The position numbers and the translations under genes were made by a program. The notes beneath the pieces are model-generated. The model was given only the letters and a program-made list of their open reading frames with translations. It was not told the DNA's origin and did not search any database. A DNA stretch of 64,000 bases from an uncultured Bacteroidales bacterium (GTDB lineage Bacteria > Bacteroidota > Bacteroidia > Bacteroidales > WCHB1-69): the NCBI GenBank assembly GCA_937892025.1, contig CALAVA010000042.1, forward strand, positions 739 through 64,738. The letters are read 5' to 3'. The stretch's first letter is position 1; each line of letters starts with the position of its first letter. Shown one piece after another: positions 46,137-46,697 of this stretch.

Positions 46137-46697
46137 TTAAAATAATTTGGTTATGTCCTGTCGAAGAGAGCGCAAGAAATCATACGCCTCAATAGGAGAT
46201 TTTGATTCCAACTGAAAAGCCAGTACACGACCAATGACATCACTTATTCTTGTGATGCGAGGCTCTGCATCCCTAACCTCTCTTTCCTCTCTGCGTTTCT
46301 TTTTCCCCTCCGTCAACGGTAAAGAGTTCTTCCAATCCTCTTTCTGACGATTTAGATTTTCAAAACTTACTTCGCCAATCTCCACGGGCAACTCTACCAC
46401 AACATCTATCTGCACATCGCTTACTGGCTTAAACTCAACCGAACCGTCATTAGGCACATACTTGCCCAACGAAGAAACGGGGAATCCGACAAAAGCATCA
46501 AGATACCCGTCTTTCAGACGTTTAACTGTCACTCCCATTGGTTTTTCCGCTGCCGCCCCAAACGGGAACTTAGACATAATCCATGCACTCCAGTCGTGAG
46601 CACGATAAAACTCGCCCTCCTTTAAGAAGTGAACCACGTTGAACTCATCTACGTTCGTTCGCTTGCTCTCTATCTCTATAATCTCTGCTATAGTCAT
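46137..46697 (-). CDS. DGR accessory protein, MutS-domain-I-like (MSL-type), in the Avd position
   Basis: ..FNVVHFLKEGEFYRAHDWSAW...GVTVKRLKDGYLDAFVGFPVSSLGKYV.. parallels MutS domain I (GDFYE...AG.P......Y); lies between target and TR. Confidence 0.55.
   Translation of the reverse strand: MTIAEIIEIESKRTNVDEFNVVHFLKEGEFYRAHDWSAWIMSKFPFGAAAEKPMGVTVKRLKDGYLDAFVGFPVSSLGKYVPNDGSVEFKPVSDVQIDVVVELPVEIGEVSFENLNRQKEDWKNSLPLTEGKKKRREEREVRDAEPRITRISDVIGRVLAFQLESKSPIEAYDFLRSLRQDITKLF

Follow-up and report, generated by a model that had tools for sequence, protein, structure and literature searches.

What kind of protein occupies the place of the accessory protein Avd in a diversity-generating retroelement (DGR) that has no Avd of its own, and what may it contribute to retrohoming? 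The locus that raises this question lies in a 64,000-nucleotide stretch of DNA (hereafter the window: contig CALAVA010000042.1 of assembly GCA_937892025.1, positions 739 to 64,738 of the forward strand) from an uncultured Bacteroidales bacterium. The DGR spans 44.5-47.7 kb of the window on the minus strand, in the order target gene, 133-nt spacer, 186-aa open reading frame (ORF), template repeat (TR), and reverse transcriptase (RT). The initial annotation placed this ORF between target and TR and read it as a MutS-domain-I-like protein in the Avd slot. The ORF is present as claimed (46137..46697, minus strand); it starts 133 nt downstream of the target gene and is followed by TR and RT. Its product is very probably an accessory of the MutS-like (MSL) family, composed of an N-domain that derives from MutS domain I and a family-specific C-terminal helical module. 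The gene and its parts are as follows.

46137..46697, minus strand: probable MSL-type DGR accessory gene, ATG start, 186 aa, with full-length homologs
46314..46697, minus strand: N-domain, residues 1-128, recognized by hhalign, the AlphaFold2 model, Foldseek, and the PF01624 matches of relatives
46602..46610, minus strand: codons for F30-Y31-R32, opposite MutS F36-x-E38 in the alignments
46248..46313, minus strand: linker, residues 129-150, predicted local distance difference test (pLDDT) score 50-60, rich in Lys, Arg, and Glu, little conserved
46140..46247, minus strand: C-module, residues 151-186, pLDDT 83-93, conserved

Relationship of the accessory protein to MutS domain I and to Avd

The 186-aa ORF is a real gene, because its N-terminus (MTIAEI...) and full length are conserved across homologs in 141 protein clusters at 50-67% identity; overall, 602 representative clusters hold homologs. 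Family members are mostly 175-200 aa long, have a median isoelectric point (pI) of 5.6-5.7, and carry no annotation other than ‘hypothetical protein’. Contigs that encode the identical protein come from a single bioreactor metagenome sample, ERR1278104.

The relationship to MutS is visible at the level of the family. The family profile matches a MutS_I profile with an hhalign probability of 96.0% (E 4.7e-9), residues 20-83 aligning with MutS 26-82. This MutS_I profile combines E. coli MutS with homologs of a canonical MutS_I ORF that the window itself encodes, and 12 column-shuffled versions of it, used as controls, reach at most 3.1% probability and E 0.014 at best. The family profile also aligns with E. 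coli MutS 1-125 (hhalign E 1e-3) and with the canonical MutS_I ORF of the window (77.8%, E 1.9e-5), which the accessory protein on its own matches by BLASTP at 1e-4. When scanned singly, 51 of 113 family members match PF01624 (best 9.9e-5), and no other Pfam family is matched by more than two of the 113. The ORF of the window lies below the PF01624 gathering threshold: as a single sequence it has no PF01624 match at E ≤ 1 and nothing in Pfam or PHROGs. Two relatives scanned individually score 16.1 and 14.6 bits against a cut-off of 20.6 bits, and the family profile finds no MutS match among PDB sequences.

Structure prediction points in the same direction. AlphaFold2 models residues 1-128 with a pLDDT of 95.3 and a predicted template modeling score of 0.88, and Foldseek matches this model best to MutS, which accounts for all of its top 12 PDB hits (entries from Neisseria, E. 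coli, and Thermus; probability 0.90-0.99, E 0.019-0.073, template modeling (TM) score 0.32-0.43, 55-106 columns, root-mean-square deviation 2.5-5.8 Å). The full-length model behaves similarly, and among viral proteins the closest match in fold is a phage ‘DNA mismatch repair protein’ of 153 aa (BFVD A0A8S5PPT8). Profile and fold comparisons thus agree with the original reading of a MutS-domain-I-like protein, the latter with weak statistics, and the case for homology is the agreement of several independent tests, not the fold statistics alone. The extent of the match had been overstated: collinearity with MutS holds over ~60 residues by profile and ~80-106 by fold, and a clean 110 residues is not borne out.

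The accessory protein shares with MutS domain I (PF01624; E. coli MutS residues ~1-115) the core fold, the order of its elements, and two motifs, G-x-F-Y and G-[FI]-P, that stand in register. In every alignment, F30-Y31-R32 faces MutS F36-Y37-E38, just as the initial annotation had it, and G71-F72-P73 faces MutS G70-I71-P72. The stacking Phe is kept, whereas Arg or His stands in place of Glu38. Of the 113 members, 101 have F and 10 have W at position 30; at position 32, 91 have R, 17 have H (108/113 together), and one has E. Relatives that are associated with or fused to Avd have F-W-V, F-W-K, or F-W-Q at the motif. This composition indicates that the stacking aromatic is under selection and that the Glu has been absent since the origin of the family. 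The accessory protein further differs from MutS in having neither domains II-V nor an ATPase, and in its additions to the domain I core, namely (i) an extra N-terminal helix, (ii) a helix at the end of the N-domain that terminates in the near-invariant W122-K123, and (iii) the C-terminal helical module.

The C-terminal third had been described as a basic, Glu/Arg-rich tail. That description fits residues 129-150, a basic linker with a pI of ~10 in the protein of the window; the charge is not conserved (family pI 5.5-10.1), and residues 151-186 form a conserved module instead. The latter is confidently modeled as a helix-turn-helix hairpin with the motif P162-x-E164-x-[KHR]-[ST]-P168, and related cassettes also contain it as a mini-ORF of its own.

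The protein is not of the Avd type, as the initial annotation held. It is acidic (whole-protein pI 5.42), has no bAvd or 23S_rRNA_IVP match in the Pfam scan, and as a 113-sequence family profile reaches hhalign probabilities of 1.1% against Avd of Bacteroides phage Bacuni_F1 and 1.6% against a seven-sequence Avd alignment; the same values rule out a cryptic Avd in the C-terminal part. The Pfam test can detect Avd, because Bacuni_F1 Avd, which sits in the same slot (target-Avd-TR-RT), scores PF22296 at 4.7e-36. Neither bAvd nor 23S_rRNA_IVP appears among the best 25 families listed per Pfam scan for the 92 ORFs of the window. The two proteins share their place in the gene order, between target and TR-RT, and are both strictly linked to a DGR RT; in relatives, Avd (bAvd, PF22296/PF05635) is physically fused to the N-domain. 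In sequence and predicted fold they are unrelated: Avd is a basic four-helix bundle of ~115-127 aa, and the accessory protein, 186 aa long and acidic, combines an alpha/beta domain with a helical hairpin.

The window encodes a second protein of MutS domain I ancestry. At 6352..6714 (plus strand), just after a RadC-like gene (5783..6259) and ~40 kb from the DGR, lies a 120-aa stand-alone canonical MutS domain I (PF01624 3.5e-23; phmmer 3.6e-16 against E. coli MutS) with an intact Phe-x-Glu (GDFYESY). It is 52-64% identical to many small stand-alone homologs and to partial MutS of Bacteroidaceae and Prevotella metagenome-assembled genomes (MAGs), and a scan of viral contigs for its close relatives yields one locus only. 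Stand-alone phage proteins of this type (6352..6714 and BFVD A0A8S5PPT8) resemble the accessory protein in being a single phage-encoded MutS-I domain with no ATPase; they differ from it in retaining F-x-E, in their strong PF01624 score (3.5e-23), and in having no link to a DGR. The product of 6352..6714 could be a repair decoy or represent the kind of gene that gave rise to MSL.

Cassettes with and without Avd

The accessory gene stays with DGR RTs wherever it is found. Viral contigs searched with the protein yield 22 loci, and 22/22 have the order target-ORF-TR-RT where the contig permits. Distant members (~30-35% identity), which lie on chromosomal contigs as long as 497 kb, keep the same order next to other targets, again with no Avd. 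Searching viral contigs with the RT yields 80 loci, which were sorted by hidden Markov models (HMMs) for the accessory family, RT, and Avd into the following arrangements.

53 loci, all evaluable loci of the RT clade of the window: MSL-like gene, no Avd
3 loci: MSL-like protein, then a genuine Avd (bAvd up to 5.6e-15)
4 loci from four different samples: N-domain::Avd fusion in one ORF, without the C-module
4 loci: 46-73-codon ORF with the C-module alone, followed by Avd
remaining evaluable loci: Avd alone

The linkage to DGR RTs, which the initial annotation proposed to examine as co-occurrence, is seen in the 22 viral loci found with the protein, where the contig permits, and in 53/53 evaluable loci of the RT clade. 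One alternative is that the ORF is a passenger, a gene of the phage that lies inside the cassette but has nothing to do with the DGR. The indirect nature of its tie to retrohoming would speak for such a passenger; that the gene and the RT remain together in phage and chromosomal cassettes, despite unrelated neighbors and different target architectures, and that it is fused to Avd in some relatives make a passenger extremely improbable.

The fusions and the separate C-modules come from distinct contigs. MSL::Avd fusions of ~275 aa are encoded on four viral contigs (L107, 2410..3234; L110; L113; L116), and their two halves are recognizable as MutS-like N-domain (hhalign 97.9%) and complete Avd (96.0%). 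Mini-ORFs with the C-module (L104, 2453..2671; L102, 212..430; L105, 2639..2776; L111, 2484..2690; HMM E 4e-8 to 2.6e-7) lie directly upstream of a genuine Avd and represent either a small DGR protein in its own right or conserved remnants of MSL. Other apparently long or fused family members were rejected as Rosetta-stone fusions: P0129 and P0147 appear to result from a frameshift or read-through, in P0125 and P0266 a deletion has joined the N-domain to the C-terminus of the RT, and L022/L047 has a truncated N-domain joined to the RT. Decay or rearrangement is also seen in two further cassettes. In L045 the target runs straight into the RT, as expected from VR/TR recombination (VR, variable repeat) or assembly collapse, and L032, a 6.1-kb contig with no RT called, has an IS66 element where TR and RT normally follow the accessory gene.

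In a neighbor-joining tree of the RTs, calculated without bootstrap and with short inner branches, the 51 Avd-less RTs are monophyletic and nested among Avd-containing arrangements, with Avd-only cassettes as outgroups. The simplest history would be that MSL joined an Avd cassette and that Avd was then lost a single time. The RTs of the Avd-less clade have no clade-specific insertion that might offset this loss. Searches of GenBank phages at the DNA and protein levels find no relative of the accessory ORF, and the nearest deposited phage RTs are ≤37% identical. Species-representative genomes give two matches only, a rumen Prevotella MAG and a rumen Bacteroidaceae MAG.

These observations frame the main rival to the mechanism proposed below, in which the protein substitutes for Avd: it would bind the RT and the TR-containing RNA and be required for primed, adenine-mutagenic cDNA synthesis, with the MutS-I fold serving only as an RNA or RNA:DNA scaffold. 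The protein takes the exact position of Avd in a layout otherwise identical to that of Bacuni_F1, is the sole accessory in 53/53 evaluable loci of the clade, and was already present when Avd was, apparently once, lost, after which the cassettes remained active without any compensating insertion in the RT. However, MSL and Avd coexist or are fused in sister clades, which implies ancestral roles that were complementary rather than redundant, even if a later take-over is conceivable, and the protein has no sequence or profile similarity to Avd. Moreover, other DGRs are reported without avd, such as that of the crAss-like phage LMMB (lineage 3), whose cassette is described as containing no avd gene (PMC7290462), so loss of Avd need not require a replacement. 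On balance, substitution for Avd appears rather unlikely.

The published catalog of DGR accessories provides the closest comparisons. Wu et al. (2018 NAR; PMC5758913) listed 16 MSL genes (112-283 aa, pI 7.2 ± 1.7), all in DGRs that also carry avd, and left their mechanism undefined, in agreement with the initial annotation. The same work noted a weak MutS_I motif in the C-terminal extension of some DGR RTs. Like the cataloged MSLs, the protein of the window is small, is encoded inside a DGR cassette, and is remotely similar to MutS domain I; its homologs in sister RT clades adjoin a genuine Avd, which is the published architecture D. Its 186 aa fall within the range for MSL, and it is more acidic (pI 5.4 versus 7.2 ± 1.7). 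In contrast to the 16 cataloged cases, its whole monophyletic clade is without Avd, and it is this Avd-less arrangement, set against a catalog that pairs MSL with avd, that is unusual. The protein, likened to the 16 by description, is best filed as MSL-type in a new arrangement.

A second cataloged accessory, CH1, has no identifiable motif and occurs only in Avd-less Bacteroides lineage 3a cassettes (PMC5758913). It likewise is small, acidic, and found in Avd-less cassettes of Bacteroides and relatives. The descriptions differ in size and charge: 160-169 aa and pI 4.7 ± 0.2 for CH1, mostly 175-200 aa and a median pI of 5.6-5.7 for the present family. The context of CH1 is Avd-less cassettes, and relatives of the protein of the window occur in the Prevotella and Bacteroidaceae MAGs. 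In the literature, no account was found of Avd-less MSL cassettes, MSL::Avd fusions, or a separate C-module, nor of a stand-alone phage MutS domain I.

Template and variable repeats and the target-site hairpin

Whether cassettes of this type still mutagenize can be read from their repeats. The remaining elements of the DGR in the window, which complete its RT motifs and TR/VR pair, are listed here.

46831..47667, minus strand: DGR target gene, 278 aa, with a C-type-lectin-like C-terminus (weak Lcl_C / Fib_succ_major matches)
46834..47022, minus strand: VR, inside the target gene, from the VR/TR alignment
46712..46783, minus strand: nested hairpin in the gap between VR and accessory gene, from a DNA fold
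45804..45992, minus strand: TR, 189 nt, from the VR/TR alignment
44569..45759, minus strand: DGR RT, 396 aa, matching RVT_1 and phrog_1423 (2.4e-88), with motifs IGNLTSQLF and YVDD

Adenine-specific differences between TR and VR, the third hallmark of a DGR, occur in L026 and relatives and not in the window itself, where the two repeats are 100% identical over 189 nt. L026, from another assembly of the same sample and with a 100% identical accessory protein, has 17 TR/VR differences, all at TR adenines, and the repeat of the window differs from the L026 TR at five sites, four of them adenines. Because of these differences, the identity in the window probably reflects a collapsed or consensus assembly of both repeats and not an inactive DGR. 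Search tools for DGRs that demand A-mismatches would overlook this cassette. In 26 related cassettes, both phage and chromosomal, TR and VR differ at almost no positions other than TR adenines (14-27 of ~40-56), which indicates that the Avd-less cassettes are active. An 81-aa ORF at 45756..46001 (minus strand) corresponds to the TR in the frame of the target C-terminus and is a by-product of the repeat, not a separate gene; its counterpart in phage Bacuni_F1 is annotated as a ‘DUF1566 domain protein’.

The gap between VR and accessory gene folds into a 72-nt hairpin (-24.4 kcal/mol, z = -7.2) with an outer stem, two symmetric internal loops, and a GC inner stem with a 4-nt loop. It is of the DGR target-site hairpin/cruciform type. 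This architecture, though not the sequence, recurs in 17 related Avd-less loci, whereas Avd-containing relatives have short, simple GC hairpins. An unusually long, nested, structure-conserved hairpin immediately upstream of the gene in precisely the Avd-less clade raises the alternative that the MutS-I-like domain is a target-site recognition factor, which would bind the internal loops of the hairpin or cruciform downstream of VR and mark the site of cDNA integration. The support is a correlation only, and relatives with MSL plus Avd or with the fusion carry the N-domain yet have simple hairpins; such a role is regarded as quite improbable.

The cassette belongs to a tailed-phage genome, as seen from ORF matches across the window to terminase, scaffold, endolysin, RecT, DnaB, sliding clamp, and RadC families. 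In its early region, this phage also encodes a D12-class N6-adenine DNA methyltransferase (15214..16089, plus strand; PF02086 3.3e-10).

A possible role in retrohoming

Homology to MutS domain I, a wedge that is kept while the Glu is lost, the absence of an ATPase, the strict link to an active RT, and the fusion to Avd in relatives are the bases for a mechanism that is put forward tentatively. The accessory protein would work as a subunit of the RT ribonucleoprotein rather than as a free factor. The C-module would dock it onto the complex, a task that in relatives without the C-module may pass to the Avd to which the N-domain is fused. Through its retained Phe wedge, the MutS-I-like domain might then hold unstacked or mispaired bases in adenine-mutagenized intermediates, such as the cDNA:VR heteroduplex and perhaps the TR-RNA:cDNA hybrid. 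Repair would not be licensed, because the protein lacks an equivalent of Glu38 as well as the clamp and ATPase domains. As a net effect, a heteroduplex dense in mismatches would evade host MutS and become fixed into VR. As a whole, MSL identity together with this mechanism is the best explanation of the locus, and our confidence in it stops just short of even; the mechanism itself, an RT-complex subunit that binds mispaired intermediates, is held with less.

Experiments on Bacteroides DGRs bear on this proposal from two sides. Deletion of host mutS raises retrohoming in B. ovatus 5-10 fold in an all-or-nothing manner (Macadangdang et al., bioRxiv 10.1101/2024.11.15.621889), and suppression of mismatch repair (MMR) has been used for DGRs installed in E. 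coli (10.64898/2026.07.21.739853). The B. ovatus data lend indirect support to a putative role in handling or shielding the heteroduplex, as the initial annotation had suggested. The same study reports Msl together with an Avd-like protein in the Bacteroides DGRs Bfr, Bth, and Bun.

Several points weigh against the proposal. The Foldseek statistics are weak alone (E 0.02-0.07, TM 0.41-0.43), the profile match spans only ~60 residues, and the function of the protein is something we infer. MutS domain I on its own binds DNA poorly without the clamp domains. The C-module cannot be merely a tether for the N-domain, because cassettes with the C-module alone plus Avd exist. Since the phage already encodes a canonical MutS domain I, the copy linked to the DGR would have a different, more specialized job. 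Finally, the MutS-restricted B. ovatus DGR is one of two (Bov, Bfi) that are not listed with Msl, and the Msl-encoding Bfr, Bth, and Bun show low activity (10.1101/2024.11.15.621889).

The restriction of Bacteroides retrohoming by host MutS would also suit a free anti-repair decoy that acts in trans and independently of the RT, either by competition with host MutS over mismatches or by the poisoning of MutS dimers. Homology to a mismatch-binding domain that has lost the Glu and comes without an ATPase is in keeping with such a decoy. A general decoy, however, needs no fixed place between VR and TR in every cassette, the Avd fusions point to a place in the RT complex, and the separate canonical MutS_I ORF of the phage, with its intact F-Y-E, suits this role better; a decoy is accordingly judged improbable.

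The RT-subunit proposal can be carried further, to a formulation that we consider doubtful at present: the accessory protein would be an obligate subunit of a second, Avd-free kind of DGR RT complex, in which the mismatch fold holds adenine mispairs during cDNA synthesis or integration and thereby couples mutagenesis to MMR evasion, with N-domain, C-module, and Avd as interchangeable docking modules. Were the protein indeed an obligate, Avd-independent partner of the RT, its interest to specialists in DGRs and retroelements would be higher.

How adenine-mutagenized cDNA replaces VR is the main open step of DGR biology, and the recent work in Bacteroides cited above identifies host MutS as a limit on this replacement. 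MSL genes have been listed since 2018 without a handle on their function. Four results make that function testable: (i) a large, active, Avd-less clade with MSL as sole accessory, (ii) MSL::Avd fusions, (iii) a separable C-module, and (iv) the Phe-x-Arg/His motif. They predict that the protein binds the RT through its C-module and mismatches or bubbles through F30, and that it shows epistasis with mutS. With RT and MSL as its only two proteins, the clade represents a minimal two-protein DGR, which may help engineered DGR mutagenesis, now reliant on Avd and on artificial suppression of MMR.

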